A stretch of 42,564 nucleotides of DNA from NCBI GenBank assembly GCA_035764845.1, contig DASTYP010000243.1, positions 1 through 42,564 on the forward strand, given 5' to 3'. Source of the DNA: Candidatus Limnocylindria bacterium (GTDB taxonomy: Bacteria > Chloroflexota > Limnocylindria > QHBO01). Position numbers and translations under genes: made by a program. The notes beneath the pieces were generated by a model, which ran no database searches, was not told the origin of the DNA, and was given only the letters and a program-made list of their open reading frames with translations. Positions 1-39,541 of the stretch are shown piece by piece; position 1 is the first letter of the stretch, and every line of letters starts with the position of its first letter.

Positions 1-558
1 CGGCCCCGCGGCCGTCCCGGCCAGGTCGGGACCGTGGCACGACGCGCAGCCGGCGCTCGCGTACACCTCGGCGCCCGCCTCGATCGTGTTCGGGACGTCC
101 TCCGGCGGCTGGTTGGCCGCCTCCGCCGCCCAGGACTCGACCAGCGCGACGACGGCGTCGATCTGCTGCTGGTTGAGCGGTCCGCCCACTTCCGAGCTCC
201 AGGCCGGCATCTGCGAGTTGACGTTGCCCGACACCACCACGCCGCCGTAGCTCACGGCCAGGTGCACGTAGTTCGGGTTCGCCTTCAGCTTGTCCGCCAG
301 GCTGCGGGAATGCAGGTTCGGACCGATGACGGCCGCGCCCGGCTCGCCACCCGTGCCGTCCGCGCCGTGGCACTGCGCGCAGCCCGCGGCCGCCGGCTCG
401 GCCGGGTTGTTGGAGAAGATGATCTCGCCGAAGTGGAGGAGCTCCTCCTCCTGGCTGGTGGCAACCGTCTCACGACGCGGCTCGTCGGTGATCCAGTAGA
501 TCATCGTGAAGGCGGCGAGGGCAGTGACGAGCAGCACCCCCAGCGTCTTGAGTCGCAT
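1..558 (-). CDS. Dihaem c-type cytochrome subunit of the Rieske/cyt b complex. Partial: the 3' end runs off the left edge, and it is absent from the ORF track because no stop is in view.
   Basis: Hand translation of the minus strand from ATG at 556-558 gives MRLKTLGVLLVTALAAFTMIYWI..., an N-terminal TM anchor. Two haem-c motifs are present, CAQCH and CASCH. The start lies 4 nt downstream of the Rieske stop (TAG, 562-564). Confidence 0.8.
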   Translation of the reverse strand, partial: MRLKTLGVLLVTALAAFTMIYWITDEPRRETVATSQEEELLHFGEIIFSNNPAEPAAAGCAQCHGADGTGGEPGAAVIGPNLHSRSLADKLKANPNYVHLAVSYGGVVVSGNVNSQMPAWSSEVGGPLNQQQIDAVVALVESWAAEAANQPPEDVPNTIEAGAEVYASAGCASCHGPDLAGTAAGP

Positions 559-561
559 CGG

Positions 562-1221
562 CTACCCCGTGCAGTGCGCCATGTCGGTCGGCGCTCGATC
601 GTCGAAGGTCACGGTGCCGACCGGTGGGCCGGAGATGACCTCGCGGGTGACGACCACGTAGGCGCCGTCCTGGACGGTGACCGAGAAGCGGTCCATGCCG
701 CGCGGTGCGGGACCGTCGCGCTTCTCCCCCAAGACCGTGTACTTCGAGCCGTGGCAGAGGCACTCGAACCACTCGCTCTGGTCGCAGAGCTGCGGGATCT
801 GGCAGCCGAGGTGCGGGCACTTGCGCCACAGGGCCAGGACCGATCGGTCCACCGGCGCGGTGGCGTCGTCCACGTTGGCGCCCGGATCCGGGATCGGCGA
901 CGCGACCGAGCCGTTGCCCTCGACCCGTGCCTTGGACGCCGGCACGTTGACGAAGAACAGGTTGGCCTCGTTGTAGACGTACGGCACGCCCTCGGCCCAC
1001 TCCGGGAAGGCGGTGTTGATGTCGTCGGCCGTGCCGAGCGTGATGTCGGACCCCAGGCCCGAGGTCAGGTTCGGCCACATGAACGCCAGCGTGCCGCCCA
1101 GGAACTCCAGGCTGAGCAGACCGATGCCCACGCCCAGCACGCGCCGCATGAAATTGCGCCGCGTGATCTCGCCGGTCGGCGGGCCCTGGACCGCGCCGTA
1201 GGAAGCGTGCTGCGTCGTCAT
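562..1221 (-). CDS. Rieske 2Fe-2S subunit of a cytochrome bc/b6f-type complex
   Basis: ORF 562..1338 trimmed to ATG 1221 (MTTQHAS...), which overlaps the upstream stop as ATGA. It has a Tat-like motif TRRNFMRRV followed by a TM helix, and Rieske boxes CPHLGC and CLCHGS. Confidence 0.9.
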   Translation of the reverse strand: MTTQHASYGAVQGPPTGEITRRNFMRRVLGVGIGLLSLEFLGGTLAFMWPNLTSGLGSDITLGTADDINTAFPEWAEGVPYVYNEANLFFVNVPASKARVEGNGSVASPIPDPGANVDDATAPVDRSVLALWRKCPHLGCQIPQLCDQSEWFECLCHGSKYTVLGEKRDGPAPRGMDRFSVTVQDGAYVVVTREVISGPPVGTVTFDDRAPTDMAHCTG

Positions 1222-1838
1222 AGCGTGAAGAAGAGGCCCTCCCACGGCCAGACCCAGTTCCACCCGGGACCGCGGAAGAAGGAGCCGATGAAGGTCACGA
1301 TCAGGCCGCCGATCATGAGGCACAGGAAGAAGACCCACATCAGCTTGCGATCACGCGCCGCCTTGTACGGGGTCCGGTCCACGAACGGGATGATCAGCAG
1401 GCCGCCGATGTAGACGGGGATAACCAGCACGCCGGCCACCGTCGGGTTGAAGTAGCTCAGCAGCTCCTGCAGCCCGAGGAAGTACCACGGCGCCTTCGCG
1501 ACGTGGGGCGTCACCGACGGGTTCGCCATCTCCTCCAGCGGGGCGCTGATGAACACGGCCGTGACCGTGAGCAGGCCCGTGATGAGCATGGCCATCACGA
1601 ACTCGGCGCGCAGCAGGTGCGGCCAGGTCAGGACGGTCTCGTCCGGCCGCTTGTCCACCCGGACCATCGACTCCTGCTTGACGTAGGCGAGGAGCCGGAA
1701 GCGCTCGGTGCCCGGGACGCCCGGCGGGCCGGGGAGCTTCGGGCCGCCTGCCGCCGGGGCGGCGATCGGCGCGCGCTCGGGCGCCTGGGTCGGGGCGTTC
1801 TTATCGGCCGTGGCGTTCGGCCGCTTCTCGATCGTCAT
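1218..1838 (-). CDS. Cytochrome b C-terminal domain protein (b6f subunit IV-like)
   Basis: It has an APWYFLGLQELL motif of the PEWYF type, three hydrophobic helices and a P/A-rich N-terminus. It lies 18 nt downstream of the b6-like gene. Confidence 0.85.
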   Translation of the reverse strand: MTIEKRPNATADKNAPTQAPERAPIAAPAAGGPKLPGPPGVPGTERFRLLAYVKQESMVRVDKRPDETVLTWPHLLRAEFVMAMLITGLLTVTAVFISAPLEEMANPSVTPHVAKAPWYFLGLQELLSYFNPTVAGVLVIPVYIGGLLIIPFVDRTPYKAARDRKLMWVFFLCLMIGGLIVTFIGSFFRGPGWNWVWPWEGLFFTL

Positions 1839-1856
1839 CGGTCAGCGCACCTTACC

Positions 1857-2603
1857 CTACACCGGACCGGAGATGCCGCCGTCCTTCCGGATCCTCCAGA
1901 AGTGGACGATCATGAAGATGGCGGCCAGCAGCGGGAACATGATCACGTGCGCGACGTAGAAGCGCAGCAGCGTCCCCTGCCCGACCTGGATCCCGCCCAG
2001 GAGCATGAAGCTCGACTCCGAGCCGAGCAGTGGCGCGTACTGCGCCATCTGCGTCCCGACCGTGATGGCCCAGAACGCGATCTGGTCCCAGGGCAGCAGG
2101 TAGCCGGTGAAGCTCAGCGCCAGCGTCAGGAACAGCAGCAGCACGCCGACGACCCAGTTGAACTCGCGCGGCGGCTTGTAGGCGCCGTGGTAGAAGACCC
2201 GGATCATGTGCAGGAAGACGGTCAGCACCATCAGGTGCGCCGCCCACCGGTGCATGTTGCGCACGAAGGCGCCGAAGGCGACGGATGCCTCGATGGCCTG
2301 GATGTCCTGGTAGGCGCGCGTCACGCTCGGCACGTAGAAGAACATCAGGTACAGGCCGGTGACGGTCAGCGCCAGGAAGAGGAAGAAGCTGATCCCGCCC
2401 AGGCAGAACGTGTACGTGTAGCGCACCGCGTGGCGCTTGACCCGCACCGGATGCAGGTGCAGGAACACGTTGTTCATCACGGCCAGCGCGCGGGTGCGGC
2501 TGGTGGTCGGGTACGGCTGGCGGAAGAGGCTGCGCCAGACGGCCGACTCCTTGATCCAGCGAGTCACGGCGTTGCCGCCGGCACCGGGCTGTCCGTTGCT
2601 CAT
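1857..2603 (-). CDS. Cytochrome b6-like protein (N-terminal four-helix haem-binding half of cytochrome b)
   Basis: His ligand pairs are present in [22 protein letters not shown] and [25 protein letters not shown] carries a Cys at the b6 haem-ci position. The C-terminus [12 protein letters not shown] is b6-like. The start overlaps the upstream stop by 4 nt. Confidence 0.9.
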
Positions 2604-4573
2604 CGCTCCACCGCCATGCCGGCCTGCTGCCCCACCTGCCCCAGCACGTTGTCCTTGTAGCTCTCCAACAGAACCTTCCCGTCAGGCGTGAACCGCTCGA
2701 GCTCGAGCCGATCCATCGTGATGCAGTTGGTCGGACACCGCTCGACGCAGAGGTTGCAGCGGATGCAGCGCTCCTCGTCGATGATCATGGCGATCCCGCG
2801 CGGCCACGACTGGAAGAACTCCTGCTCCGGGTCGTCGCCACCGACCTGCGCCTTGTCGATCATGTAGATCACGCCCTCGGGGCACACGTCGGCGCAGAGT
2901 CCGCAGAGGATACAACGGGGACCGTCGATGTTGATGTTGTGGTTGCACTGGAGGCAGCGCGAGCCCTCCGCGATGGCGCTGCGCGTGTCGTAGCCCACCT
3001 CGACCAGGCTGGTGAAGTCGCGGCGCAGCTCCGGCGGCGCCATCGGGATCTCCTGGCGCCGCGTCGCCTCGTAGAAGCGCGGCATGTCGTGCTCGAGGCT
3101 CTGGGTGATGACCGCGCGGTTGATGACCGGCAGCTCCTCGAGCTCCTCGCCGCGCAGCCCGGCCAGCCAGCGATCGACGCTTCGGGCGCATCGGCGGCCC
3201 AGGCCGGCGGCCTCGATGATCGTGGCCGGCCCGGTGATGAAGTCGCCGACCGCGAAGACGCCATCGGCGTCGGTGCCGAAGGTGTCGCGGTTCACGCTGA
3301 CGTAGCCGCGCTTGAAGTCGAACTTGAGCGAGTTCATGGGGCGGCCGTCGGCATCCTTGGGGGTCGAGCCGTTCATCGGCGGCGTGCGCCAACTGGAGAG
3401 GCTGCCGCCGTCGACCACCGTGCGCGTGTCCGTCACGCCGACGTGGCGGTTGAGCGGGGCGCCGTACTCGCCGAGCACGTTGTTGTCCGCTGCCTGGCTG
3501 GTGCAGGGCACGACCATGTCGCACGCGATCTCGAACTCGCTGCCCGGGATCGGCTCCGCGCTGCGGCGGCCGGTGGCGTCCGGCGGCCCGAGACGGGTGC
3601 GGACGAAGCGCATGCCGCGCACGTGACCGTTCTCGTCAGCCAGCACCTCCTCGGGGGAGGCGAAGTACTCGAAGCCGACGCCCTCGAAGCGCGTCTCGTG
3701 GATCTCCTCCTCATCCACGACCATCTCCTCGGGGCCGCGGCGGTAGACGATGGTGCTCGTCTTGGCGCCCAGGCGGAGGGCCGTGCGGGCGGAGTCCATG
3801 GCGGTGTAGCCGCCGCCGATGATGACGACGTGCTCGCCGACCCACTGCGGCTGCCCCAGGTTGGCGCGCTTGAGGAAGTCGACGCCGTAGATCACGCCGT
3901 CGAGCTCCTCGCCGGCCACGTTCATGGCGACGGGGTACATGCAGCCGGTGGCGACCACGACCGCGTCGTGCCGGTCACGGAGCTGCTCCAGGGTGACGTC
4001 GCGGCCGATCTCGACGTTGTAGTGGAACTGCACGCCATGCTTCGCGACCCAGTTGGCGTCGAGCTCGATGACGTCACGCGGCAGGCGGAAGGCCGGGACG
4101 CCGATGAGGGTCGTGCCCCCCGCCGAGGGAAGCGCCTCGTAGATGTGGACCTCGTGGCCCCAGCTGGCAAGCTCCTTGGCGGTCGAGAGGCCCGCGGGAC
4201 CGGCCCCGACGATGCCGATGCTCCGACCCGTCGGCGGCTGCACCACGATGTTGTCCGGCATGTTGTTGCCGTAGTGCCAGTCGACCAGGAAGCGCTTCAT
4301 GGCGCGGATGGACAGCGGCTTGTCGATGTCGGCCCGGCGGCAGGCCTTCTCGCACGGCGCGCTGCACACGTAGCCGCAGATCGCGGCGACGGGGTTCGGG
4401 TCGCGGGCCAGGATGTAGCCCTCCTCGAACCGCCCCTCCGCGGCCAGCATCAGGTAGCCCCGGCAGTTCGTGTTCACCGGGCAGCCTTCCTGGCACTCGA
4501 TGTTGCACTGGAGCCAGTCGACGCCGACTTCGGCGGTCTGGAACCTGAGGGGTATCGCGGTATCGCTGATCAC
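2600..4573 (-). CDS. GltD/NfnB-family NAD(P)H-dependent Fe-S flavoprotein with a C-terminal 2x[4Fe-4S] ferredoxin domain
   Basis: N-terminal Cys clusters are [15 protein letters not shown] and [13 protein letters not shown]. Two dinucleotide folds are present, IVGAGPAGL and [10 protein letters not shown], plus VFAVGD. The C-terminus has CLQCNHN...[12 protein letters not shown] and [12 protein letters not shown]. The start is GTG at 4571-4573. Confidence 0.85.
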
Positions 4574-4633
4574 GACAGGTGGAGACTCTCCCGCGGCGTG
4601 GTTCGACCAAGGGCTTGAAGGAGCGGCCCGCCG

Positions 4634-4663
4634 ATGCTACCCGCTCCGCGACCGGCCGCGCAA
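4634..4663 (-). promoter_or_regulatory. Candidate promoter of the respiratory operon (TTGCGC-N18-TAGCAT)
   Basis: On the minus strand, the -35-like TTGCGC (4658-4663) and -10 TAGCAT (4634-4639) lie about 60 nt upstream of the GTG at 4573, inside a 329-nt non-coding gap. Confidence 0.3.
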
Positions 4664-4902
4664 GGCGAGCGATGGGCGAGGCGAGCGCGCAGGAACGGTT
4701 CGCGCGTCTCGACGTTGCGCGATTCTGTCATCCACGCCTGGGGGTGGTGACGGGCCGGGTCGCGGCGCGCGACGTTGCCAAGGCACGCCAGCCAGGCGTG
4801 AACGCGGCCCGGATGGCGGAGTCGAGCGGTCTCGGCGCGCCCATCACCACGGGGAGGCGTGACCGGCAATCGGGGCGACCGAGGCGGCCGGGCGCACCCC
4901 GG

Positions 4903-6942
4903 TCATCCACCGGCGAAGTGGGCCACCATCACCCGCCGGACGAGCGGGGCGGCGTCGGAGCCGCCGGTGCCGAGCGGGATGTAGGTCAGGATCGTCGCGA
5001 CGCTGATGGTCGGCGCATCGGCCGGGGCGTAGGCGGGGAACCAGGCGTGCGGATCGGGGGTGCCGGTCTCGGCCGTGCCGGACTTGCCGGCGACGGGGAC
5101 GCCGAAGCCGGCGAACGCCGCCGTGCCGGTGCCGTACGGGAGGGTGACCACGGCCTGGAGCGTATCGGTCACGTAGGCGAGGTCCTCGCGGGAGACGCTG
5201 ACCTGGCGGATCGGCTCCGGCTCGACGGACTCCACGACGGTCCCGTCCGGCAGGGTGGCCGTAGTCAGAATCCGCGGTCGCCACAGGGTGCCGCCGTTGC
5301 CGATGGTGGCGTAGGCGTTCGCCAGCTGCAGCGGTGTTCCCAGGAACGCGCCCTGGCCGATGGCCAGCTGGACCTGCTCGAAGCCGGAGTAGCCGCCGCG
5401 GCCGTTCTCGGACAGCCACTGGTCGTCCGGCACGATCCCCGTCTCCTCGACCAGGTAGCCGATGCCGCTTGCCTGGCCGAACCCGAACTCCTTGAGCAGA
5501 TCGGTGAGCGCCGTCTCATCGGCCTGGTAGACCGACAGCGCCAGGGGCATGTAGGTGGTGTTGCAGCTGAAGGCCATGGCCTGCGCCAGGCTGACGAGGC
5601 CGGGCAGCGAGTGCTCCTCGTAGTTGCGGAAGGTGAAGCTGCCGTACTGCCAGGTCGGCGGGCAGGTCACCAGCGACTGGGGCGTGACGACGCCGGTCTT
5701 GAGCGCGACGGCGAGCGTGAACGGCTTGAACGAGGAGCCGGCCGGGTAGGCGCCGAGCACCGCCTTGTTGAAGATCTGTCCCTGGCCGGCGGCATTCAGC
5801 GGCTGCCCGTCGAGGGTGGTGCCCAGCGTCATGGCGTTCGGGTTGAAGGCCGGCGTGCTGGCCAGGGCCCACACGTCGCCGGAGTTCGGATCGATGACCG
5901 CGGTCGCGGCGGCTCCGTACGGGGCGAGCGCATCCTGGGCGGTGGCCTGGATGGTCGGCCGGATGGTGATGGAGATGTCGGCGCCCGGGACCATCTCGGT
6001 CTGGAGCACGGGCGTCTCGACGCCGTTCTCGCCGATGGCCACCAGCGTCCAGCCCGGAATGCCGCGGAGGAGGTCCTCGGCCCCGGCCTCCAGGCCGCTT
6101 CGACCGATGACGTCCCCGGCGCGGTACCCGCTGGCAGGACCCAGCCGATCGAGGTCCTCGGCCGTCACCTCGCTGACGTAGCCGATGACCTGGCCGGCCA
6201 GCCACTCCTGCGGGTACACGCGGATGCCGTCGTCGCGCGTCTGGGCCCAGACCAGGCCGTCCCCACCGAGGATGCTGCCGCGGTCGCCGATCGACCGGTC
6301 AAGCCGGAAGCTGCCGGCGTCGCCGAGCTCGGGGAAGAGCAGCTCGGGCGACCAGCGGATCGCCCATCCGTCGCGGTCCTCGACGAGCGTCATCCGCCGC
6401 TCGAGGTCGACCTCGCCGAACCGGTCGGTCGCGACGTCGAGCGTGACCGGGACCGCCAGGCCGGGGACGGGGCCGGCGACGGGGGCGGTCGGGTCGAAGG
6501 AGGGTGCCGGCGTCGGCTGCGGCGTGGGCGTGGCGTTCGGGTCGCCCGATGGCGCGGTGGTCGGCACGGGAGTGGGCGAGGGGGCGGCGAACTCCGGGGG
6601 ACGGGCCTCCGGCGGCAGGGCGGTGACTTCCGGAGCGCCTGCCGAGGTCGTCATGCTGGTGAGCAGCGACAGGTCCGCGAAGGTCGCGTGCAGCTCGCGG
6701 AACTGGTCGAGCGTCACGCGTGCGCGCGTCGCGGCATCGAGCGACGCGTACATCGCGTCGTAGTCCGCCGACGCCCACGCCGCAAGGTACCCGTCGACCA
6801 CCGCGGACGCCGCTTCCTCCGGCGCGCGCGGATAGGTCGTGGGCACCGGCGTCGGCTCGGGATCGGCGGCGGAGCATGCGGCGAGCCCGATGGCGAGGAC
6901 GAGGACGAGGCCGGCGAGTGCGGCGAGCCGCGCGCGCGTCAT
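4903..6942 (-). CDS. Class B penicillin-binding protein (transpeptidase) lipoprotein with an NTF2-like (MecA_N-type) N-terminal domain
   Basis: Lipobox LAAC. Transpeptidase motifs SSFK (SxxK), SCN (SxN) and KSGT (KTG-type). The start overlaps the upstream stop as ATGA at 6939-6942. Confidence 0.9.
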   Translation of the reverse strand: MTRARLAALAGLVLVLAIGLAACSAADPEPTPVPTTYPRAPEEAASAVVDGYLAAWASADYDAMYASLDAATRARVTLDQFRELHATFADLSLLTSMTTSAGAPEVTALPPEARPPEFAAPSPTPVPTTAPSGDPNATPTPQPTPAPSFDPTAPVAGPVPGLAVPVTLDVATDRFGEVDLERRMTLVEDRDGWAIRWSPELLFPELGDAGSFRLDRSIGDRGSILGGDGLVWAQTRDDGIRVYPQEWLAGQVIGYVSEVTAEDLDRLGPASGYRAGDVIGRSGLEAGAEDLLRGIPGWTLVAIGENGVETPVLQTEMVPGADISITIRPTIQATAQDALAPYGAAATAVIDPNSGDVWALASTPAFNPNAMTLGTTLDGQPLNAAGQGQIFNKAVLGAYPAGSSFKPFTLAVALKTGVVTPQSLVTCPPTWQYGSFTFRNYEEHSLPGLVSLAQAMAFSCNTTYMPLALSVYQADETALTDLLKEFGFGQASGIGYLVEETGIVPDDQWLSENGRGGYSGFEQVQLAIGQGAFLGTPLQLANAYATIGNGGTLWRPRILTTATLPDGTVVESVEPEPIRQVSVSREDLAYVTDTLQAVVTLPYGTGTAAFAGFGVPVAGKSGTAETGTPDPHAWFPAYAPADAPTISVATILTYIPLGTGGSDAAPLVRRVMVAHFAGG

Positions 6943-7658
6943 CGGGCCAGGGTCACCCGCCGGAAACCTTCCGCCGCCCGGTAGCCGGCCCGCTCACCGA
7001 GCTCCTCGTTCCGGCGGCGCACCCAGCGGGCGATCTCGTCGAAGGCGTGGAACTGGCTCGCGTGACGGGCCAGCGCCGCGATCTTGGCATCCAGCGTGGC
7101 GCCGATGTCGACCAGCTGGTTCGCCTCGTTGGTGCTCCACAGGTACAGCTCCGCCACCTTCCATGGGCCCAGGCCCGCCTGGAGGTGCTCGTGGAAGTTC
7201 AGCGGGTCACGCGCGGTCGGGAAGACGGCGTCGACCGTGGTCATGCCCACCGCGCGGTGGTCGGGGTGGTTGACCCACTCGTTGTTGACGAAGAGGACGG
7301 TCGGATCGTGGGTCATGACGATCTCGGGCTGGAAGGCCCGGATGGCGTACGTCAGCCGTTCCCGCAGCCTGAGCGACGGCTCCACCTGGCCGTCCGGCTC
7401 GTCGAGGAAGTCCACGCCCTCGACGCCGATCTCCGCGGCGGCGGCCCGCTGCTCCTCCTCGCGGAGCCGGGCGATGCGCGCCAGGTCCGCGGCCGGATCG
7501 TCGGTGCCCTTGTCGCCGCGCGTGACCAGCAGGTAGCGGACGCGGGCGCCCTCGGCCACCCAGCGCGCCACGGTGCCCGCGGCGCCGAACTCGATGTCGT
7601 CGGGGTGCGCGGCGACGACGAGGACGCGTTCGGGGGTGGGCAGCTTGTCGTCTGGCAT
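6939..7658 (-). CDS. PIG-L/LmbE-family N-acetylglucosaminyl deacetylase
   Basis: It has VVAAHPDDIEFGAAG (the AHPDD zinc-binding motif) and HPDH. Its length of 239 aa is typical for the family. Confidence 0.85.
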   Translation of the reverse strand: MPDDKLPTPERVLVVAAHPDDIEFGAAGTVARWVAEGARVRYLLVTRGDKGTDDPAADLARIARLREEEQRAAAAEIGVEGVDFLDEPDGQVEPSLRLRERLTYAIRAFQPEIVMTHDPTVLFVNNEWVNHPDHRAVGMTTVDAVFPTARDPLNFHEHLQAGLGPWKVAELYLWSTNEANQLVDIGATLDAKIAALARHASQFHAFDEIARWVRRRNEELGERAGYRAAEGFRRVTLAR

Positions 7659-7698
7659 GGGCTGCGGCCGATCCTAGCAGTCAGCCGGGCGGCAGCCG

Positions 7699-10683
7699 TC
7701 AGCCCAGCGCCAGGGTCCGGGCGCCGCCCGGATCCAGCACCTCGGCCGTCCACGCATGGCAGGTGAAGTAGAGGACCTGGTGGCGGTCGGCCAGGTCGCG
7801 GATGGCGGCGGCCGCGCGCGCTGCGCGTTCGGCGTCGAAGTTGACCAGGATGTCGTCCATGACCACCGGGAGCGGCTCGGCGTGGATGGCGAACTGCTCG
7901 ATGAGGCCGAAGCGCAGCGCCAGGTACAGCTGCTCGCTCGTCCCGCGCGACAGCTCGTCCGTTGCGCGCATGGTGCCGCCGACCATCTCGACGCGGACGC
8001 TGGCGTCACCGGGCGGGGCGATGATTCGCGGGTATCGGCCGCCGGTGATCCGCTCGAAATGCGCTTCGGCGGACCGCACCACGTCCGGCTGGCGCTCGCG
8101 TTCGTAGCGTCTCCTCGTCTCCTCGAGCAGTCGCAGGGCGACTGCGCGGACTGCCCAAGCGCGAGCCATGGCGGCCGCCCGCCCCTCGACGATGGCGAGC
8201 TCCTGCCGCCGCGCTCCGAGCTCCTCGGCCGCCTCGAGCTGCCGCATGCGGGCGTCGAGAGCCCCGATCCGGCTGTTCGCCTCGCGCTCCTGCGCCTCGA
8301 GGCGTTCCAGCGCGTCACGCGCCTCCGCCTCGGCCGCCTCCAGACTGGCGCCGTCCGAGGCGCGCGCCTCGGCCACGAGCTCCGGTACGGCTTCGTCGTT
8401 GCCCGCGAGGACCGCGAGCTCGTTGCGCCGCGCCCGGATGGTCTCGCGCAGGCGGCGGCGGGTCTGGGCTTCCGTCGCGCGCCGGCGGAGGCCGTCGGGA
8501 TCGAGGCAGCCGGTCGCCTCGAGGTGGGCGCGCAGCGCGGCCTCTCGCTCCTCGACTGCCGCCGCCGCAACCTGGCGTCGCTCGGTGGCCTGAGCGATCC
8601 CGGCGTCCAGCTCCGCGGCGTGGCGCGCGTCCGCGCGCGCCTGGTCCAGCCGCTGCGCGAGGGTGACGATGGTGGCGTGGCGCCGCACGCCATCGGCCGG
8701 CCGCGCGCCGGTGACGCGCACGATCAGCTCGTCCGCTCGGGACGCGAAGTCGCGCTCCTCGGACCGGAGCGTCTCGAGCTCCTGCAGGGCGGCGTCCCGC
8801 TCGGCCGCGGCGCGTCGCGCGATGCCGGCGGCTGCCAGCACGTGGCGGACCGCCTCGGGCGTCTGCGCCGCCGGCAGGCCGTGGTCCGCCAGCCACGTCG
8901 CCCAGGCTTGCTCCGCCGTCGCGGCCTGCTCGCGCGCCGCCTCCACGTCGTGGAGCCGCCGCTCGACGTCCGCGCGGCGCGCGTCGAGGGCGCTCGACTG
9001 CTCCCGAACGCGCGCGTGTCGGGCGCGCTGCTGCGCGAGCTCCTCGGCCAGCGATCGCACGGCGCCGTCGAGTGCGTCGAGCGGCAGGCCCAGCCGGCGG
9101 AGGAGGTCCTCGCGCTCGCGATCCAGCGCCGTGGGATCGGCCGGCACGGAAGTGCGGGCGACGAGCCGACGCAGGACGGCCATGGTCAGCGCCGCGGTCG
9201 CTCCCCCGAGCGCGATCCCGGGAAGCGGTGCCCCGGCCAGCCAGGCCGCCAGGAAGACCGCCGCGCCGACCAGGGCCGCCATGCCGGCCAGGGCGCCGGT
9301 GCGGAATGCGGCGGCCCGACCGTGCGCGGCGACCGCAGCGGCGGCGGCGCGCCGCTCGCGGAGATCGTCGAAGGCGGCGACCAGCTGCGATCGTGCGCCC
9401 AGGGCCTCGTCGTCGCCGATCTCGACACCCCCGCCGACCTCTCGCAGGCGCACCTCCAGCTCCTCGGCCGCGGCGCGGCGGCGCTGTTCCGCCTCACCGA
9501 GCGCGGTGCGCGCCGCGGACAGCGCCCGTTCGTGCTCGCGGGTCGCCTCCACCGCACCGATGGAGTCGTCGAGGGCGACGAGGGTCGCCTCGTCCCAACC
9601 GCCAACGCGGGCCAGCTGCTCCGCGATCGCTGCGCCGTGACGCTGGAGCGCGGCGTCCAGGTCGCGGGCCCGGCCGTCGGCCGCGGTACGCCGCGTGGCC
9701 TCGGCGCTGAGCGTGACGAGCTCGTCGGCGACGGCGAGGATCGGCTCGTCGACCGTCAACGCCGCGCGCCGCCGGCAGGCGGTGTCGAGCTGCTCGTCCA
9801 GCGTGGCCAGCACCGCCCGCGCCTGCTCCAGGTCCGCGGTGCGGCGCTCGAGGACCACGAGGCCGTCATCCGGGAAGGCGTCGAGCGTCGGGTCGCCGGC
9901 CTGCAGCTCCGCCTCGAGCTGGCCGAGCTCCACGGCCAGCGGCGCGGCTCGACGCAGCGCCGCCAGGCGCGCCAGCCGCTCGCGGAGCGTGCGGAGCTCG
10001 TCGCGCAGCGCATCGGCCCGGGCACGCAGCTCGTCACGCTCGCGGCTCGCCTCGGCGTGCTCCTGGGGCTGCTTCGCCAGGTCGGCGATCTCCCGGCGCA
10101 GCTCCTCGGCGCGCGCGAGCAGCTGGTTGAGCGGCCGCTTGCTGCCCTGCGGCAGGAAGACGGCGTCCAGCTGCTGCCGCAGCCGTCGCTCGAGATCGAT
10201 GGCACTGGTGCCGCCGAGGCCGGCGCCCGCGCCGTAGATGCGGCCGCGGACCGCATCGGCGGAGAGGCTGGCCAGGGTCTGGAGCTCGCCCAGCCCGAAG
10301 GCGAAGATGTTGTTGAAGAGGTCCTTGTCGGCCCCGTGCAGCAGGCGGTCCAGCGTCTCCTGGCCGCCCTGGTTGCCGTTCGGCGCCCTGACCGCCAGGG
10401 CCCCGCCTCCTCCGCGCTCGCCGTGGCGCTCCACCGTCCAGCGTTCGCCGGACGCCGTCCGCAGTTGGAGGCGACCGCCACGGCGGCCACCGGCCAGCGC
10501 CGGGTACCAGGCGCGGCCGTCGCGGGACGATTCGAAGCCGAAGAGCAGGGCCCGGACGGCGTTCAGCAGCGTCGTCTTGCCCGCCTCGTTCGCGCCGAGC
10601 AGCACCGTCAGGCCGTCACCCAGGTCCCAGTGGGCGTCGTGGAAGCGGCCGAAGCCGTCGAGCTCCAGGCGCTCGATCCTCAC
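7699..10683 (-). CDS. SbcC/Rad50-like SMC-type ATPase, YhaN (SbcE)-like
   Basis: ORF 7699..11172 trimmed to GTG 10681-10683 (VRIERLELDGFGRF), which overlaps the SbcD-like stop as GTGA. Walker A is GANEAGKTTLL. Long R/A/E/L-rich coiled coils follow. The signature is LSRGTSEQLYLALRF and Walker B is PVVMDDILVNFD. Confidence 0.85.
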   Translation of the reverse strand: MRIERLELDGFGRFHDAHWDLGDGLTVLLGANEAGKTTLLNAVRALLFGFESSRDGRAWYPALAGGRRGGRLQLRTASGERWTVERHGERGGGGALAVRAPNGNQGGQETLDRLLHGADKDLFNNIFAFGLGELQTLASLSADAVRGRIYGAGAGLGGTSAIDLERRLRQQLDAVFLPQGSKRPLNQLLARAEELRREIADLAKQPQEHAEASRERDELRARADALRDELRTLRERLARLAALRRAAPLAVELGQLEAELQAGDPTLDAFPDDGLVVLERRTADLEQARAVLATLDEQLDTACRRRAALTVDEPILAVADELVTLSAEATRRTAADGRARDLDAALQRHGAAIAEQLARVGGWDEATLVALDDSIGAVEATREHERALSAARTALGEAEQRRRAAAEELEVRLREVGGGVEIGDDEALGARSQLVAAFDDLRERRAAAAAVAAHGRAAAFRTGALAGMAALVGAAVFLAAWLAGAPLPGIALGGATAALTMAVLRRLVARTSVPADPTALDREREDLLRRLGLPLDALDGAVRSLAEELAQQRARHARVREQSSALDARRADVERRLHDVEAAREQAATAEQAWATWLADHGLPAAQTPEAVRHVLAAAGIARRAAAERDAALQELETLRSEERDFASRADELIVRVTGARPADGVRRHATIVTLAQRLDQARADARHAAELDAGIAQATERRQVAAAAVEEREAALRAHLEATGCLDPDGLRRRATEAQTRRRLRETIRARRNELAVLAGNDEAVPELVAEARASDGASLEAAEAEARDALERLEAQEREANSRIGALDARMRQLEAAEELGARRQELAIVEGRAAAMARAWAVRAVALRLLEETRRRYERERQPDVVRSAEAHFERITGGRYPRIIAPPGDASVRVEMVGGTMRATDELSRGTSEQLYLALRFGLIEQFAIHAEPLPVVMDDILVNFDAERAARAAAAIRDLADRHQVLYFTCHAWTAEVLDPGGARTLALG

Positions 10684-12008
10684 CCCCGGTCCTCCTCGGC
10701 GGCCAGCAGCAGGTCGAGGCCAAGCGTCTCCGCCTCGTCCAGCAGCTCGCCGACCAGCACGGCGTCGTCGGGGCGGCCCTCCGCCAGGTGGCGGCGACCG
10801 CGGGGTGAATCGTCGAAGACCGGCGCGAGCGCCGACCGCAGCTCGCCCAGCCAGCGCTCGTGCTCCTCCGGATCCGTCGTCGTGCCGCTGCGCCGGGCGG
10901 CGGCCACCGTCCGCAGGAAGTCGCCGACGAAGTCCGGCGCCTCGCGCCGGGCGGTGACGTCGACGTCGGGACGGGTCGCATCGGTCAGCGACTCGACCCA
11001 GGCGAACGGCGGGGTCGCGCCCGCCTCCTCGTTGAGCAGGAGGCGAAGGTCGTCCACGTAGCCCGCGCGCCCCAGGTTCGCGTGGAGCGGGCCGCGGCCG
11101 GTGAGGCGCAGACGGACAATGAGCGAGCGGCCATCCGCCGCATCCAGCGCAGCCGCCATGGCGCTCACACACGCGCGGCGCAGCGCCTCGTCATCGGCGA
11201 GGTCGCCGGTGTCCACGTCGAGCGGCTGCCAGCGCACGACGTCGGTGACCACGAAGCGCGGCGTGACGCGGCGGGCGGCGTCGACCTCCACCAGCCAGCA
11301 GCCCCGCGCGCCGAGCTCGCCGGGGTCGCGGCCCTGAGGGATGCCCGAGTAGTAGGCGGGCGGATCGTCGAGGACGCGGCCCGGCTGGTGGATGTGGCCC
11401 AGCGCCCAGTAGTCCATGCCGGCGGCCCGAAGATCCTCGACCGAGCACGGCGCGTAGTTGTGGTGCCCGGGCCGGTCGCCGACGTTCGTGTGCAGCAGAC
11501 CGATCGAGAACGGCGCACCCGGCTCCGCGCGGAAGCCCGCGGCGTAGTTCTCCGTGACGGCGGGCCGCGGGTACGACCGGCCGTGGACGCGCGCGATCTC
11601 GCGCCCGTCGCGCAGGACCGGGACGGCCTCCACGGCGCGGGTGCCGAAGCGGTGGACCATATCCGGGAAGCGGAGCGACGGCGCCCAGCTGCGACCGTCG
11701 AGCGGATCGTGGTTGCCGTGGACCACGAAGCTCGGGATGCCCGCGGCCGCCAGCTCGGCCAGGCCGTCGCGGAAGCGGGTCTGGCCAAGCAGTGATGGGC
11801 TCGAGACCTCGAACACGTCCCCGGCGATCACGACGAGGTCCACCCGCTCGGCGATGGCCGTGCGAACGATGGCGCGCCAGGCCTCGGTGGTCGCGCCACG
11901 CAGCAAGGTCAGGACCTCGGGCGGCGCCTCCGAGCTCAGTCCCTCGACGGGGCTGTCGAGGTGGAGGTCACCGGCATGGATGAAGCGGAAGGGCTCGATC
12001 GAGGACAC
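10680..12008 (-). CDS. SbcD/Mre11-like metallophosphoesterase nuclease, YhaO-like
   Basis: Calcineurin-fold motifs are present: HAGDLHLD, IAGDVFE, HGNHD and LGHIH. The start is GTG at 12006-12008. Confidence 0.85.
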   Translation of the reverse strand: MSSIEPFRFIHAGDLHLDSPVEGLSSEAPPEVLTLLRGATTEAWRAIVRTAIAERVDLVVIAGDVFEVSSPSLLGQTRFRDGLAELAAAGIPSFVVHGNHDPLDGRSWAPSLRFPDMVHRFGTRAVEAVPVLRDGREIARVHGRSYPRPAVTENYAAGFRAEPGAPFSIGLLHTNVGDRPGHHNYAPCSVEDLRAAGMDYWALGHIHQPGRVLDDPPAYYSGIPQGRDPGELGARGCWLVEVDAARRVTPRFVVTDVVRWQPLDVDTGDLADDEALRRACVSAMAAALDAADGRSLIVRLRLTGRGPLHANLGRAGYVDDLRLLLNEEAGATPPFAWVESLTDATRPDVDVTARREAPDFVGDFLRTVAAARRSGTTTDPEEHERWLGELRSALAPVFDDSPRGRRHLAEGRPDDAVLVGELLDEAETLGLDLLLAAEEDRG

Positions 12009-16239: not shown

Positions 16240-17705
16240 CAGCCCGGAGCCTCGAGCGTGATCACCCGATCGGCGAGGGCGCGGATGAACGGCGGGTCGT
16301 GGCTGACGACGCAGATGCCCCGCCCCTCGTCCCGCAGCCCGGCCAGCAGGTGCAGGAGCTCGGCCCACGTCCGGCGGTCCTGGCCGAAGGTCGGCTCGTC
16401 CAGCACCAGCGCGGCGGGTGCGGTCGCCAGTGCCGTGGCCACCGAGAGGCGGCGCTTCTCCCCGCCCGACAGGGTGTACGGATTGGCGCGGGCCAGCGCG
16501 GCCAGGTGGAGTCGCTCCAGCAGCTCGTCGGCACGCCTGCCGGCCGCCGCTTCGCTCACCCCGATCCGCCCGGGCCCGAGCAGCAGCTCCTCGCGCACGG
16601 AGCCAGTGAGGAACTGGTGCTCCGGGTCCTGGAAGACCGTCCCCACGTGCCGGGCGAGCTCGCGGGCCGGCCAGTCGGCCAGCGGTTCCATGCCGCGGCC
16701 GGGAGCCAGCGCCTCGGTGGCGCGAACCGACCCGGCGCTCGGCCGCAGCAGGCCGGCCAGCAGCATGGCCAACGTGGACTTGCCGCTGCCATTCGGCCCG
16801 ACCACGCCAAGCACCTCACCGGCGCGCAGCTGCACGTCCGTCGGTCGCAGCGCGTCACGGTCGGCGCCGGGGTAGCGGAACATCGCGCGCTCCGCGATGA
16901 CCAGCGGCTCGGGCCCGGGCGCTTCGCGTCGAACGGGCGGCGCCGGCGGATGGTCCGGCACCCAGACGCCCGCCTCCGCCAGCCGGGAACCCTCCGCGCG
17001 GAACACCTCGACGGGCGGCCCGTCGGCAACCACGCCTCCGCCCGCCTGGAGCACCACGACCCGGTCGACCAGCGGCAGCACGTCGTCCAGCCGGTGCTCG
17101 ACCAGGAGCAGCGTCACCCCGGTTCGCTCGAGGATGCGGGCGACGGCGCGACGGACCTCCGCCGCACCGTCGGGGTCCAGGTTCGCCGTCGGCTCGTCGA
17201 GCATCATGAGGCCGGGACGCAGCGCGAGCGTCCCGGCCAGCGCCAGCCGCTGCTGCTCGCCGCCGGAGAGGGCGTGCGTCGGGCGGTCGCGGCCGTACGG
17301 GAAGTCGACGGCCGCGAGCGCTGCATCGACGCGCGGCCAGATCTCGGGGGTCGGGACGCATCGGTTCTCGAGGCCGAAGGCCACGTCGTCGCCGGCGCGG
17401 CCCATGACGATCTGCGCCTCAGGGTCCTGGAAGAGCAGCCCCGTGCGGTCTCTCGCGTCGCCCGGGTCACGGCCGTCGACGAGAAGGGCGCCCTCGGTCT
17501 CGGCGCCCCCGGCGGGATCGATCAGGCCGGCGAGCGCGGCCAGCAGCGTCGACTTCCCGGCGCCCGATGGCCCCAGCAGCAGCACACGCTCGCCCGGCTC
17601 GACGACGAGGTCGAGCCCGCGCACCGCCCACGCCCGGCGCCCCGGGTAGCGCAGCCCCCAGCCACGCGCCTCGAACCCGGCCGCCCCCGTGGGCCCATCG
17701 GTCAC
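16239..17705 (-). CDS. ykoD: ECF transporter duplicated ATPase (fused EcfA-EcfA')
   Basis: Two ABC cassettes are present: GPSGAGKSTLL / LSGGEQQRLALAG / LMMLDEPT and GPNGSGKSTLA / LSGGEKRRLSVA / LVLDEPT. The start is uncertain: GTG 17705 (preferred) or GTG 17777 as in the ORF track. Confidence 0.85.
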   Translation of the reverse strand: MTDGPTGAAGFEARGWGLRYPGRRAWAVRGLDLVVEPGERVLLLGPSGAGKSTLLAALAGLIDPAGGAETEGALLVDGRDPGDARDRTGLLFQDPEAQIVMGRAGDDVAFGLENRCVPTPEIWPRVDAALAAVDFPYGRDRPTHALSGGEQQRLALAGTLALRPGLMMLDEPTANLDPDGAAEVRRAVARILERTGVTLLLVEHRLDDVLPLVDRVVVLQAGGGVVADGPPVEVFRAEGSRLAEAGVWVPDHPPAPPVRREAPGPEPLVIAERAMFRYPGADRDALRPTDVQLRAGEVLGVVGPNGSGKSTLAMLLAGLLRPSAGSVRATEALAPGRGMEPLADWPARELARHVGTVFQDPEHQFLTGSVREELLLGPGRIGVSEAAAGRRADELLERLHLAALARANPYTLSGGEKRRLSVATALATAPAALVLDEPTFGQDRRTWAELLHLLAGLRDEGRGICVVSHDPPFIRALADRVITLEAPG

Positions 17706-17730
17706 GGACGCGAGAGCGGGGGCAGCACGC

Positions 17731-18324
17731 TCAGACCTCGCGCTGCTCGCGGCCGACGGCGAACTCGGCGAGCACACCCGTGGCCACCAGGGCTCGAAGC
17801 AGGTACCACGACCCGATTCCGGCGATCAGGATGCCGCTGATGACCGTGGCGACCGCGAAGATGACCCAGAAGTCGACGCCCAGATCGGGGTAGTAGACGG
17901 CGATGTCGTGGATGGCGGCACCGATGCCGGCCAGCGCACCGGCCAGCATCGCGAAGGGCAGGTTCCAGTTGCGGTACATCCCCAGGGCGAAGGCGAGCTC
18001 CGCCGCCCCACCCTGGATCGCACCCGAGATCAGGACGTCGACTCCCCAGGGTGAGCCGAGCAGGACCGATACGGCCGCCGACACGAAGCCGCCGAAGAAG
18101 GCGGCCCCCGGACGGCGGACGATCAGCCCGACGAGCACGCCCGGCACCAGCCACACGCCGTAGAGAATGGCCTGGGCCGGCTTCAGGGCCGCGAAGATCG
18201 GGTCCGTCGCGGTGTAGATGGCGTTCCAGGCGAGGAAGACGACGCCGAAGGCGACGGCGACGACGGCGCCGACGACGATGTCGACGATGCGCCAGCCGCC
18301 GGCCGAGCTCGTCGTGGTGGTCAT
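17731..18324 (-). CDS. ykoE: ECF transporter S component, YkoE-like (thiamine/HMP-related)
   Basis: It is 197 aa with about 6 TM helices. It sits between thiN and the ECF ATPase under a TPP riboswitch. The start overlaps the thiN stop as ATGA. Confidence 0.7.
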   Translation of the reverse strand: MTTTTSSAGGWRIVDIVVGAVVAVAFGVVFLAWNAIYTATDPIFAALKPAQAILYGVWLVPGVLVGLIVRRPGAAFFGGFVSAAVSVLLGSPWGVDVLISGAIQGGAAELAFALGMYRNWNLPFAMLAGALAGIGAAIHDIAVYYPDLGVDFWVIFAVATVISGILIAGIGSWYLLRALVATGVLAEFAVGREQREV

Positions 18325-18974
18325 GGATTGGCTCCTTCCGTGCTGCTCTCGACGACCAGGAGCGTCCCCTCCCGCAGCCGGACCGATGCGGGCGCCGCCA
18401 CGACCTCGTTCGAGAGGCCGCGGGAGCGGCCTGCCCGCAGGGTCGCATCGGCCAGCGGCCAGCGCAGGCCGTCGGTCGTGACGCCAATGGCGTCAGCGGC
18501 GAGTGGGAGGAGGCTGACGATCGCGCCGGGCGCGCCCTCGAGGGCCAGCACCGAGTCCCCGTGCAGCACCCGCACGGTCGTCGTCCCGCGGACCAGCCGC
18601 AGGTCGACCTTCGCGAACGCCGGATCGGCGAGCAGCAGCAGGTTGGCGAGCTCGTGGTCGAGCCGCTGGCCACCCAGGGCGCCCAGGAGGATCAGCTCCG
18701 TCGCGCCGGAGGCGATCGCGGCCTCGAGGGCCAGCTCCGTGTCCGAGGCGTCCTTGTCGGCCGGGTGGCGTTCGATCCCGACGCCCCGGGCCCGAAGACG
18801 CTCGACGAGCTCCGCATCGGTCGAGTCGAGGTCGCCGACCAGGCGGTCGGGGACGCGCGCCATCCGGGCCAGCGACGACGCGCCGCCGTCGGCCGCGATG
18901 ACCAGCTCGGCCGAATCCAGCCAGGCGTCGTCCGCCGGCTCGATCGCGCCCGAGGCCACCACCACCACTCGCAT
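18321..18974 (-). CDS. thiN: Thiamine pyrophosphokinase
   Basis: It has GDLDS and KDASDTELAL motifs, and a C-terminal thiamine-binding beta domain (GLRWPL...LSN). An SD (GAGGAG) lies upstream of ATG 18974. Confidence 0.85.
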   Translation of the reverse strand: MRVVVVASGAIEPADDAWLDSAELVIAADGGASSLARMARVPDRLVGDLDSTDAELVERLRARGVGIERHPADKDASDTELALEAAIASGATELILLGALGGQRLDHELANLLLLADPAFAKVDLRLVRGTTTVRVLHGDSVLALEGAPGAIVSLLPLAADAIGVTTDGLRWPLADATLRAGRSRGLSNEVVAAPASVRLREGTLLVVESSTEGANP

Positions 18975-19064
18975 CGGCTCCTCATCGCGTGCTGTGCTGC
19001 CGAAACGACGTGCGGCGCGCTCGAACCCAGCTCGGGATTCGGGGCGCGCCGCGGACGAGTGCTG

Positions 19065-19160
19065 CGTCGACTTCCTTCGCCGGTATGACCCGGATCAGGT
19101 TCGAGGGTCTGCGGCCACGTGAGCCGCACTCTCAGCGCTGTCGCGCTCCCCTGTCGTTTC
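19065..19160 (-). promoter_or_regulatory. TPP (THI-box) riboswitch
   Basis: The minus strand reads CGACAGGGGAGCGCGACAGCGCUGAGAGUGCGGCUCACGUGGCCGCAGACCCUCGAACCUGAUCCGGGUCAUACCGGCGAAGGAAGUCG. Both the CUGAGA and ACCUGAUCCGG..AUACCGGCGAAGGAAG cores are present, and P1 is CGAC/GUCG. A -10-like GACAAT lies at 19165-19170. Confidence 0.9.
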
Positions 19161-19191
19161 GTGGATTGTCGGATCAGCCTAGCACGGGCCG

Positions 19192-39464: not shown

Positions 39465-39541
39465 GCCCCCATCGTCTAGAGGCCTAGGACGCCACCCTTT
39501 CAAGGTGGAGATCACGGGTTCGAATCCCGTTGGGGGCACCA
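39465..39541 (+). tRNA. tRNA-Glu (anticodon UUC), CCA encoded
   Basis: The sequence is GCCCCCATCGTCTAGAGGCCTAGGACGCCACCCTTTCAAGGTGGAGATCACGGGTTCGAATCCCGTTGGGGGCACCA. It folds by hand into a cloverleaf with acceptor GCCCCCA/TGGGGGC, anticodon loop CTTTCAA and a GGTTCGAATCC T-arm. Confidence 0.95.

Follow-up and report, generated by a model that had tools for sequence, protein, structure and literature searches.

The window analysed here is the complete 42,564-nucleotide contig C243 (DASTYP010000243.1) of the Candidatus Limnocylindria bacterium assembly GCA_035764845.1 (2.05 Mb, 85% complete, estimated contamination 1.9%). Within bases 1–4573 an open reading frame (ORF) map places five co-directional minus-strand genes, predicted to encode an iron–sulfur (FeS) flavoprotein and the subunits of a Rieske/cytochrome b complex, with every junction formed by an ATGA overlap or a gap of at most 18 nt. 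These coordinates, together with Pfam and NCBIfam assignments, bear out the five-gene operon that an earlier note had proposed from the letters of this DNA. The translational coupling of flavoprotein and cytochrome b6-type genes claimed in the same place also holds, as the b6 ATG (2603–2601) overlaps the flavoprotein TGA (2602–2600) in an ATGA at 2603–2600. The features of the operon are as follows.

4574..4902, minus strand: intergenic region of 329 nt separating the flavoprotein start from an unrelated penicillin-binding-protein gene, presumed promoter region
4573..2600, minus strand: Fe-S flavoprotein gene, GTG start, 657 aa
2603..1857, minus strand: cytochrome b6-type subunit gene, 248 aa
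1838..1218, minus strand: subunit IV-like gene, 206 aa, 18-nt gap after b6
1221..562, minus strand: Rieske [2Fe-2S] gene, 219 aa from ATG 1221
558..1, minus strand: membrane-anchored dihaem cytochrome c gene (CAQCH and CASCH, PF00034 twice), 3-nt gap after the Rieske gene
C40:19531-20457 of the same assembly: cytochrome c remainder, then a 193-aa gene with four transmembrane (TM) helices

The Rieske start is most likely ATG 1221, which forms an ATGA overlap with the subunit IV stop (1220–1218), because matches in relatives set in there, directly behind subunit IV; a longer ORF from 1338 (258 aa) is left unsupported by them. Since the window begins at a contig end, the dihaem cytochrome c gene is truncated at position 1, and a tblastn search of the whole assembly located its remainder at the end of contig C40 (C40:20457-20074). 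The same-genus cytochrome c orthologue is 266 aa long; C243 carries residues 1–184 and C40 residues 140–266, and the two contigs appear to overlap by ~135 nt and to be joinable. A sixth gene abuts that of cytochrome c on C40; its 193-aa product is predicted to have four TM helices, matches no Pfam family and has homologues seen only in the window's family. An unrelated aldolase-like gene comes next. The order of cytochrome c and 4-TM gene is kept in one same-genus and one same-family genome. Because cytochrome c continues on C40 into the 4-TM gene, in the same order as in relatives, the operon comprises six genes.

RNA contigs from soil and ice metatranscriptomes (short Logan contigs, mostly of relatives at 90–99% identity, which show no transcript ends) cover all genes from ~660 to 4620, and their coverage falls to ~0 upstream of 4620, which is weak evidence. 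One such contig spans 2593–2677, across the flavoprotein/b6 ATGA junction, and a second joins b6 to flavoprotein coding sequence across a diverged stretch, lending weak support to co-transcription of the two genes. A scan of 1–5200, uninformative at 70% G+C, found neither a sigma-70-like site nor a terminator, including no terminator-like site inside the operon.

Composition of the flavoprotein and membrane subunits

The flavoprotein matches Pfam Fer4_20 at residues 21–103 (64.1 bits), Pyr_redox_2 at 119–374 (88.6 bits) and Fer4_7 at 553–617, the last within a C-terminal 2x[4Fe-4S] domain that spans 547–622. Eight cysteines (23, 27, 31, 37, 66, 70, 74 and 78) mark an N-terminal GltD-type 2x[4Fe-4S] domain, an RCLQC motif lies at 539–543, and the protein carries about 16 cluster cysteines altogether. 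Two Rossmann signatures occur within 119–374, an FAD fold with GAGPAG (123–128) and an NADP(H) fold with GGGYTAMD...VYRR. After the second fold comes VYRR, and its YRR also stands at the aligned positions of the NADP(H)-linked enzymes NfnB and StnC. A hydropathy scan found neither a TM helix nor a signal peptide. The protein thus combines the FeS helical, FAD and NAD(P)H Rossmann domains that define the GltD/NfnB/DPD-N family (PF14691 plus PF07992). Its best NCBIfam family, PRK12771, scored 412 bits (cut-off 516), and TIGR01316/01317/01318 scored 191–307 bits, under cut-offs of 448–483; GltD proper, the glutamate synthase small subunit, was rejected as an identity, its equivalog scores being under cut-off and no GltB gene being adjacent.

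The closest solved relatives are 9n5u_A, 9bov_A and 8oh5_C, the arms of NfnABC/StnABC (E about 1e-97), followed by NfnB (4ylf_B, 5jca_L), GltD and DPD, with E-values of 1e-97 to 1e-63 across these PDB matches. An AlphaFold2 (AF2) model of the protein (pLDDT 83.3, pTM 0.84; low-confidence regions 1–7, 383–403 and 640–657) matched 9bov_A, 8oh5_C and 9n5u_A in Foldseek over ~660 columns including the C-terminal FeS domain (TMq 0.66–0.67, probability 1.0). The Pfam, NCBIfam, PDB and fold matches agree with the GltD/NfnB-type architecture with a C-terminal ferredoxin module described in the earlier note. As to the comparison drawn there with NfnB, the homology stands and a stand-alone bifurcating NfnB does not, the protein being closer to the non-bifurcating NADP(H) arm of NfnABC/StnABC, or to GltD. 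With the NfnABC/StnABC arm, NfnB and GltD (2vdc_G, 6s6s) it shares the FeS-helical and FAD/NADP(H) domains, VYRR, and RCLxC followed by further [4Fe-4S] motifs. Unlike NfnABC/StnABC, it is free-standing at 657 aa, ends after the 2x[4Fe-4S] domain and has no NuoG/formate-dehydrogenase-like body; unlike NfnAB and GltBD, it has no NfnA or GltB encoded nearby, and its presumed partner is a membrane cytochrome b. Within the operon and its flanks, to which the search for NfnA was confined, no NfnA-type partner was found, and the operon contains no ferredoxin gene.

In NfnABC/StnABC arms and GltD, the FAD is presumably the NADP(H) entry point that ends an FeS wire, and in NfnABC/StnABC we take bifurcation to occur at another flavin. 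As the closest relatives are NADP(H) arms and the operon has no NfnA-like partner, the sequence suggests that the flavoprotein is an NADP(H)/FAD/four-cluster wire rather than an NfnB-type bifurcating site. This assignment would agree with AlphaFold3 models of the anammox homologues, in which four clusters form one linear chain from haem to FAD (PMC12954380). An insert of ~50 residues at ~368–416 (window ~3326–3472), between the NADP(H) domain and the last strands of the FAD domain, was seen in alignments only in the window's family and is missing from the sister family and from all distant homologues; AF2 pLDDT falls below 50 in it.

Pfam families PF00355, PF00033 and PF00032 fall on the Rieske, b6 and subunit IV genes, which are consecutive. 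The b6 protein exceeded the cut-off of NCBIfam cytb_ExtP (300.9 versus 290 bits), and its residues 64–248 align end to end with residues 32–215 of solved b6 chains, with the four b-haem ligand histidines at H118, H132, H219 and H234 and with Cys67 on haem cn Cys35. It has an N-terminal extension with VWRSLFR...NVFLHLHP, and in alignment its His49 and R240/K241 correspond to His62 and R266/K267 of the anammox protein Kustd1481. Subunit IV has about three TM helices and the quinol-oxidation (Qo) motif APWY (KAPWYFLGLQE), and scored 19.9 bits against the TIGR01156 subunit IV model (cut-off 127). The APWY clade of cytochrome b was defined by Kao and Hunte in 2014, who listed members in Chloroflexi, Planctomycetes, delta-proteobacteria, Nitrospirales and Actinobacteria, none of them characterised (PMC4122944). 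By its motifs, the complex belongs to this clade, because subunit IV has APWY instead of PEWY; the cytb_ExtP score above cut-off is consistent with that placement. In the Rieske protein, a Tat motif (TRRNFM) and a single TM anchor accompany the CPHLGC and CLCHGSKY boxes, in which Ser159/Tyr161 form the “S-Y” signature of high-potential Rieske centres (PMC4122944); the S-Y Rieske protein Kuste4569 was measured at +303 mV (PMC12954380). The dihaem cytochrome c has a weak match to actinobacterial QcrC (41.6 bits). All cofactor ligands are intact: four b-haem histidines, haem cn cysteine, Rieske boxes, two CxxCH motifs, and the FAD and NADP(H) motifs.

Conservation, distribution and respiratory context

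The 120 best-scoring flavoprotein homologues listed are all full-length and at least 82% identical, with named sources in Candidatus Limnocylindria or Chloroflexota, and matching DNA occurs in many soil metagenomes. An even sample of 61 class genomes was searched for the flavoprotein (orthologue, E ≤1e-116) and for Pfam Cytochrome_B. Fifty-five genomes contained both a flavoprotein orthologue and a 245–270-aa b6-like cytochrome b, and the two genes adjoin on one contig by coordinates in 53 of these 55; a b6 start visible before the contig end in G124 brings the count to 54, and in the remaining genome (G232) a contig break lies between flavoprotein and b6. In the other six genomes (genera g11 and g12), which lack the orthologue, only GltD paralogues and no b6-like cytochrome b were found. 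Adjacency in 54/55 of the class genomes having both genes goes far beyond what chance would give. All 12 family loci fetched have the genes in the order flavoprotein, b6, subunit IV, Rieske. The earlier note had named missing synteny of the orthologues with cytochrome b as grounds for refutation; they are instead syntenic class-wide, with the linkage recurring in other phyla.

A profile search recovered the same flavoprotein architecture from Brocadiales, Terriglobia and other Chloroflexota. Among 11 distant homologues whose genomic context was examined, seven adjoin Rieske/cytochrome b genes (L020, L021, L022, L024, L025, L031 and L032), in varying gene order and usually with overlapping stop and start codons; three are solitary (L023, L026 and L027), and L030 lies in a cytochrome bd-like/cytochrome c cluster. 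The linkage is found in Brocadiales, Terriglobia (Acidobacteriota), another Chloroflexi lineage, Nitrospinota and others. The parallel with anammox planctomycetes that the earlier note had drawn was confirmed: the same flavoprotein family lies inside Brocadiales Rieske/cytochrome b clusters (L020 and L033), and the L020 residue numbers are those given for Kustd1480/1481 (Rieske Ser114/Phe116; cytochrome b His62, Arg266 and Lys267), matching the Kustd1480-1485 numbering (PMC12954380). The window flavoprotein is 39% identical to the Brocadiales proteins P0325 and P0287 and falls in the same major clade of the tree as the Kustd1483 type (support 100/98); these comparisons make it a homologue of Kustd1483 and Kuste4570, which are the NAD(P) oxidoreductase subunits in the anammox complexes Kustd1480-85 and Kuste4569-74. 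A single clade of cytochrome b-linked flavoproteins was rejected, as the tree requires ~4 changes between linked and unlinked and the window protein has an unlinked nearest outgroup; the linked state is nonetheless clustered on the tree, only 2/500 label shuffles being as low in changes.

When GTDB genomes were scanned with an alignment of cytochrome b, 80 loci came up in many phyla, including Brocadia, Scalindua, Acidobacteriota, Nitrospinota, Planctomycetota, Binatia, Poribacteria, Omnitrophota and Marinimicrobia. A flavoprotein gene lies nearby in six of them (L033, L034, L035, L072, L076 and L111) and in none of the other 74; most context-checked members of the flavoprotein family are cytochrome b-linked, and most cytochromes b of the clade are without the flavoprotein. 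The equivalents of His62, Arg264, Arg266 and Lys/Arg267 are conserved in 86/86 sequences, the 74 flavoprotein-less loci included. His62, R266 and K267 of Kustd1481 have been proposed to hold an interfacial haem b (PMC12954380). His49 and R240/K241 as a mark of flavoprotein-linked cytochromes b were rejected, being invariant in all 86 sequences including the 74. If the interfacial haem b exists, it would be a property of the whole cytochrome b clade, because its proposed ligand histidine is conserved regardless of the flavoprotein, and the flavoprotein would have been added to a feature of the cytoplasmic (n) side that was already there. Limnocylindria, other Chloroflexi and anammox versions all retain the haem cn cysteine, which is replaced in the flavoprotein-bearing Acidobacteriota versions.

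Two distant loci depart from the usual layout. In L031 (ENA ERZ23486227 scaffold_11271, 1093-11563), from a metagenome bacterium, two flavoprotein-cytochrome b modules stand in tandem with one Rieske gene and one outlet, in the order flavoprotein, Rieske, fused 534-aa cytochrome b, second flavoprotein, second 526-aa cytochrome b, 793-aa multihaem cytochrome c, cytochrome c. In L030 (ENA ERZ27254844 k141_55301, 1-7794), the flavoprotein gene closes a cluster whose other products are a fusion of cytochrome bd-like and cytochrome c parts, a subunit resembling those of proton antiporters, several cytochromes c and a cupredoxin, and cytochrome b is absent within 6 kb; the tree position of this flavoprotein is nearly identical to that of the Nitrospinota Rieske/cytochrome b-linked protein of L111. 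L030 suggests that other membrane haem modules can also serve the flavoprotein as partners.

Strong A-type COX1 matches were obtained in 7/7 tested relatives with the operon and in neither of the two genomes tested that lack it; in the incomplete assembly of the window itself, the COX1-like matches were all weak. NrfD, the family used as marker for alternative complex III (ACIII), was not found in six near-complete relatives (G022, G058, G034, G142, G009 and G133), and the operon's own cytochrome b is the only one in 10/21 family genomes. Because it is the sole cytochrome b/complex III candidate in several near-complete relatives that have A-type haem-copper oxidases, the complex is, on gene content, a housekeeping quinol:cytochrome c oxidoreductase of the aerobic chain and not an accessory. 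The suggestion that such a complex might act instead of a plain bc complex was therefore not borne out, this being the only recognisable quinol:cytochrome c oxidoreductase in those relatives. In the window's own assembly, an NrfD-family membrane protein (C195:6555-7484, 180 bits) has no counterpart in the six near-complete relatives and may be strain-specific or stem from the estimated contamination. A divergent COX1-like ORF (48–94 bits, ~520–580 aa) is conserved across the family besides the canonical A-type oxidase (C85:170-1381 in the own assembly; G009:C2:475214; G034:C2:1573353; G058:C7:113595; G022:C7:931827).

NuoD was found in all genomes tested and PntB in 10/10, with or without the operon; replacement of PntAB by the flavoprotein as NADPH source was rejected as a discriminator on these counts. 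In six genomes of the window's family f1 (G000, G142, G022, G058, G034 and G009), no MenB above the NCBIfam cut-off was found (best 162–179 versus 342.7 bits), nor was MqnA/MqnD (PF02621); the sister-family genome G218 has a true MenB. A second GltD-like NADP(H)/FAD module lies ~4.4 kb downstream of nuoD in every class genome sampled (own assembly C121:~11-2434, minus strand; G142:C34:~245.4 kb; G034:C2:~1.697 Mb; others). The C121 ORF of ~800 aa combines an N-terminal [2Fe-2S] motif like that of NuoG with a GltD module (GAGPAG, GGGFTAID, VYRR), RCLQC and three further 4Fe-4S motifs, an NfnABC/StnC-like architecture at the expected place of nuoG. Because the GltD module sits where nuoG would be, complex I of Limnocylindria may also have an NADP(H) site.

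Elsewhere in the window, the genes upstream of the operon are unrelated by Pfam (penicillin-binding protein, PIG-L deacetylase and SMC-like ATPase). Rfam models detected a TPP riboswitch at 19055–19162 on the minus strand (RF00059, 65.7 bits), downstream of which a 323-aa ORF (17702–18673, minus strand) has no Pfam match, and one tRNA gene at 39465–39538 on the plus strand (RF00005, 66.7 bits).

Proposed electron flow and competing explanations

With moderate confidence, we read the operon as encoding a respiratory quinol:cytochrome c oxidoreductase of the APWY-clade b6 type with a cytoplasmic, NADP(H)-binding FAD/4x[4Fe-4S] subunit. In such a complex, the flavoprotein would dock on the n-side of the b6 dimer, and its linear FeS chain would link FAD/NADP(H) with the n-side haems bn/cn, possibly through an interfacial haem b that the two b6 copies would bind with their His49. 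Upon quinol oxidation at Qo, one electron would pass to the high-potential Rieske centre, the dihaem cytochrome c, the aa3 oxidase and O2; the other would cross the membrane and either reduce quinone at the n-side site (Qn), as in a Q cycle, or reduce NADP+ to NADPH via the flavoprotein. Quinol-driven NAD(P)H formation by bifurcation at Qo was reportedly proposed for anammox by Kartal in 2013. This forward mode, as an alternative outlet for the low-potential electron, is taken tentatively, at slightly less than even confidence, to be the most likely working mode, on account of the high-potential Rieske signature together with APWY, and of homology with the anammox complexes. With potentials assumed at -74 mV for menaquinone, -320 mV for NADP+ and, by analogy, ~+300 mV for the Rieske centre, bifurcation at Qo to NADP+ is calculated to release ~374 meV and cost ~246 meV per quinol, before the electrogenic transfer of an electron from the p-side (opposite the n-side) to the n-side is paid for. 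Because the calculated reaction is near equilibrium, the NADP(H)/quinone link should be reversible, set by the redox state of the pools.

Several observations weigh against this reading. The nearest flavoprotein relatives outside Limnocylindria, P0334 and P0378 of Chloroflexota, are not next to cytochrome b. His49/R240/K241 are no specific evidence for flavoprotein wiring, since the alignment has them conserved in all 74 flavoprotein-less relatives. The menaquinone assumption, and with it the energetic argument, is weakened because neither MenB above cut-off nor MqnA/D was found in the window's family. As judged from gene content, neither an extra NADPH source nor a sink is obviously needed, because NuoD and PntB were present in every genome tested. 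Finally, the RNA evidence consists of short contigs from relatives, which may include DNA carry-over.

The same complex and docking could also run in the opposite direction, the flavoprotein serving as a non-pumping NADPH dehydrogenase that feeds haem cn/bn, with quinone reduced at Qn; the whole would then be an NADPH-primed quinol:cytochrome c oxidoreductase, comparable with the FNR/ferredoxin input to b6f proposed for cyclic electron flow. Electron transfer from NADPH to quinone is strongly downhill and requires no special haem potentials, haem cn Cys67 and Qn-side residues are kept in the Limnocylindria, Chloroflexi and anammox versions, and the fold matches GltD/StnC modules, which normally take electrons from NADPH. 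Normal forward Q-type turnover, moreover, would be obligatory in the only complex III. However, this direction would waste ~250 mV although complex I and PntAB are present, leaves the high-potential S-Y Rieske with an APWY Qo motif unexplained, and fits poorly with Acidobacteriota versions that lack the cn cysteine and still have the flavoprotein; the authors of PMC12954380 judged it unlikely for Kuenenia on the same energetic ground. Overall, reverse operation is considered somewhat unlikely.

Two further explanations give the flavoprotein another role. An NfnB-like bifurcating or confurcating site, making the whole a FixABCX-like quinone-dependent ferredoxin reductase, would pass hydride from NADPH to FAD and then split the electrons, one taking a high-potential branch along the C-terminal clusters to haems and quinone, the other a low-potential branch along the N-terminal clusters to soluble ferredoxin. 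Its resemblance to NfnB (4ylf_B, 5jca_L) in sequence and fold and the presence of two separate FeS modules in one polypeptide speak for it. It is nevertheless very improbable, given that the best matches are NfnABC/StnABC arms and GltD, in which the FAD is the entry point for NADP(H) and any bifurcation takes place at another flavin, and that the operon has no NfnA-like or ferredoxin gene; in the AlphaFold3 anammox models, all four clusters also line up in a single file between haem and FAD (PMC12954380). Scarcely probable, too, is a merely co-transcribed soluble NADPH oxidoreductase with another partner beside an ordinary bc-type complex. Family members without a neighbouring cytochrome b (L019, L023, L026, L027 and L030) and the 74/80 clade cytochrome b loci without a flavoprotein would be accommodated by it, but not adjacency in 54/55 class genomes with strict co-loss, the recurrence across phyla of ATGA or other overlapping stop and start codons despite changed gene order, or the clustering of the linkage on the tree (2/500 shuffles as low). 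Furthermore, all subunits of the complex, the homologous flavoprotein among them, are reported to co-migrate in Kuenenia (PMC12954380, citing de Almeida 2016).

Relation to known complexes and implications

The anammox complexes Kustd1480-1485 and Kuste4569-4574 share with the window a split b6 and subunit IV with the haem cn cysteine, the APWY-type Qo motif, a high-potential-type Rieske protein and the ~570–660-aa flavoprotein family (Fer4_20 plus FAD/NAD(P) plus 2x[4Fe-4S]); their His62/R266/K267, a clade-wide feature, are kept as window His49/R240/K241. The two differ at the p-side, where the anammox complexes have hexa- or octahaem cytochromes or an HAO-like protein and this operon has a membrane-anchored dihaem class-I cytochrome c and a 4-TM protein. 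Unlike in anammox, subunit IV has ~3 rather than 5 TM helices, the flavoprotein gene comes first and carries the extra ~50-aa insert, and the host is aerobic with an aa3-type oxidase (as judged from relatives), this often being the only complex III. The earlier note knew of no biochemical characterisation of the anammox complexes, and some in fact exists: complexome co-migration, Rieske potentials and AlphaFold3 models have been published for these Rieske/cytochrome b complexes with NAD(P) oxidoreductase, whose function is so far a proposal (PMC12954380).

Geobacter ExtP/ExtQ (NF040969/NF040970) likewise share the APWY motif, in keeping with the cytb_ExtP score above cut-off, and a VW.S.FR...FLHLHP N-terminal extension is common to the window b6 and the 80 APWY-clade-type loci of many phyla. 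In contrast, the selenite/tellurite Ext operon context is absent at the window, and most clade members (74/80) have no nearby flavoprotein gene. With cytochrome b6f of cyanobacteria and chloroplasts, the complex has in common a split cytochrome b with four histidines and the cn cysteine, and its dihaem cytochrome c is reminiscent of the actinobacterial QcrC among Firmicute and actinobacterial menaquinol bc complexes. Unlike b6f and bc complexes, it has APWY in place of PEWY/PDWY, a b6 N terminus longer by 32 residues, no cytochrome f, no small Pet subunits and the added flavoprotein. In the open-access literature, no description of the module outside anammox (Chloroflexota, Acidobacteriota) was found, and the APWY-clade paper is silent on the flavoprotein. 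The complex is a variant of the anammox type, and what is new is the outlet of dihaem cytochrome c and 4-TM protein, the three-helix subunit IV, the flavoprotein-first order with its insert, and the role as main complex III of an aerobe.

Serving an entire oxygen-respiring Chloroflexota class as its housekeeping and often its only complex III, and recurring in Acidobacteriota and Nitrospinota, the module shifts the question from an anammox speciality to the general design of respiratory chains. Anammox bacteria are slow-growing and biochemically difficult hosts in which to study a Rieske/cytochrome b-NAD(P) oxidoreductase complex. The present distribution offers natural comparisons of cytochromes b of one clade with and without the flavoprotein, with and without the haem cn cysteine, and with dihaem versus multihaem outlets, and the clade-wide interfacial-haem histidine bears directly on the published anammox models. 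In its strongest form, which we consider quite doubtful, the proposal is that in Limnocylindria, an abundant aerobic class of soil and freshwater, the only complex III is a quinol-bifurcating NADP+ reductase. If so, the second quinol electron could be pushed uphill onto NADP+ without proton-motive force, pulled by O2-linked cytochrome c; together with the NuoG-like GltD module of the complex-I cluster, NADP(H) would be wired directly to both ends of the quinone pool, and anammox-style “R/b” energetics would then be mainstream in aerobes and not an anammox oddity.

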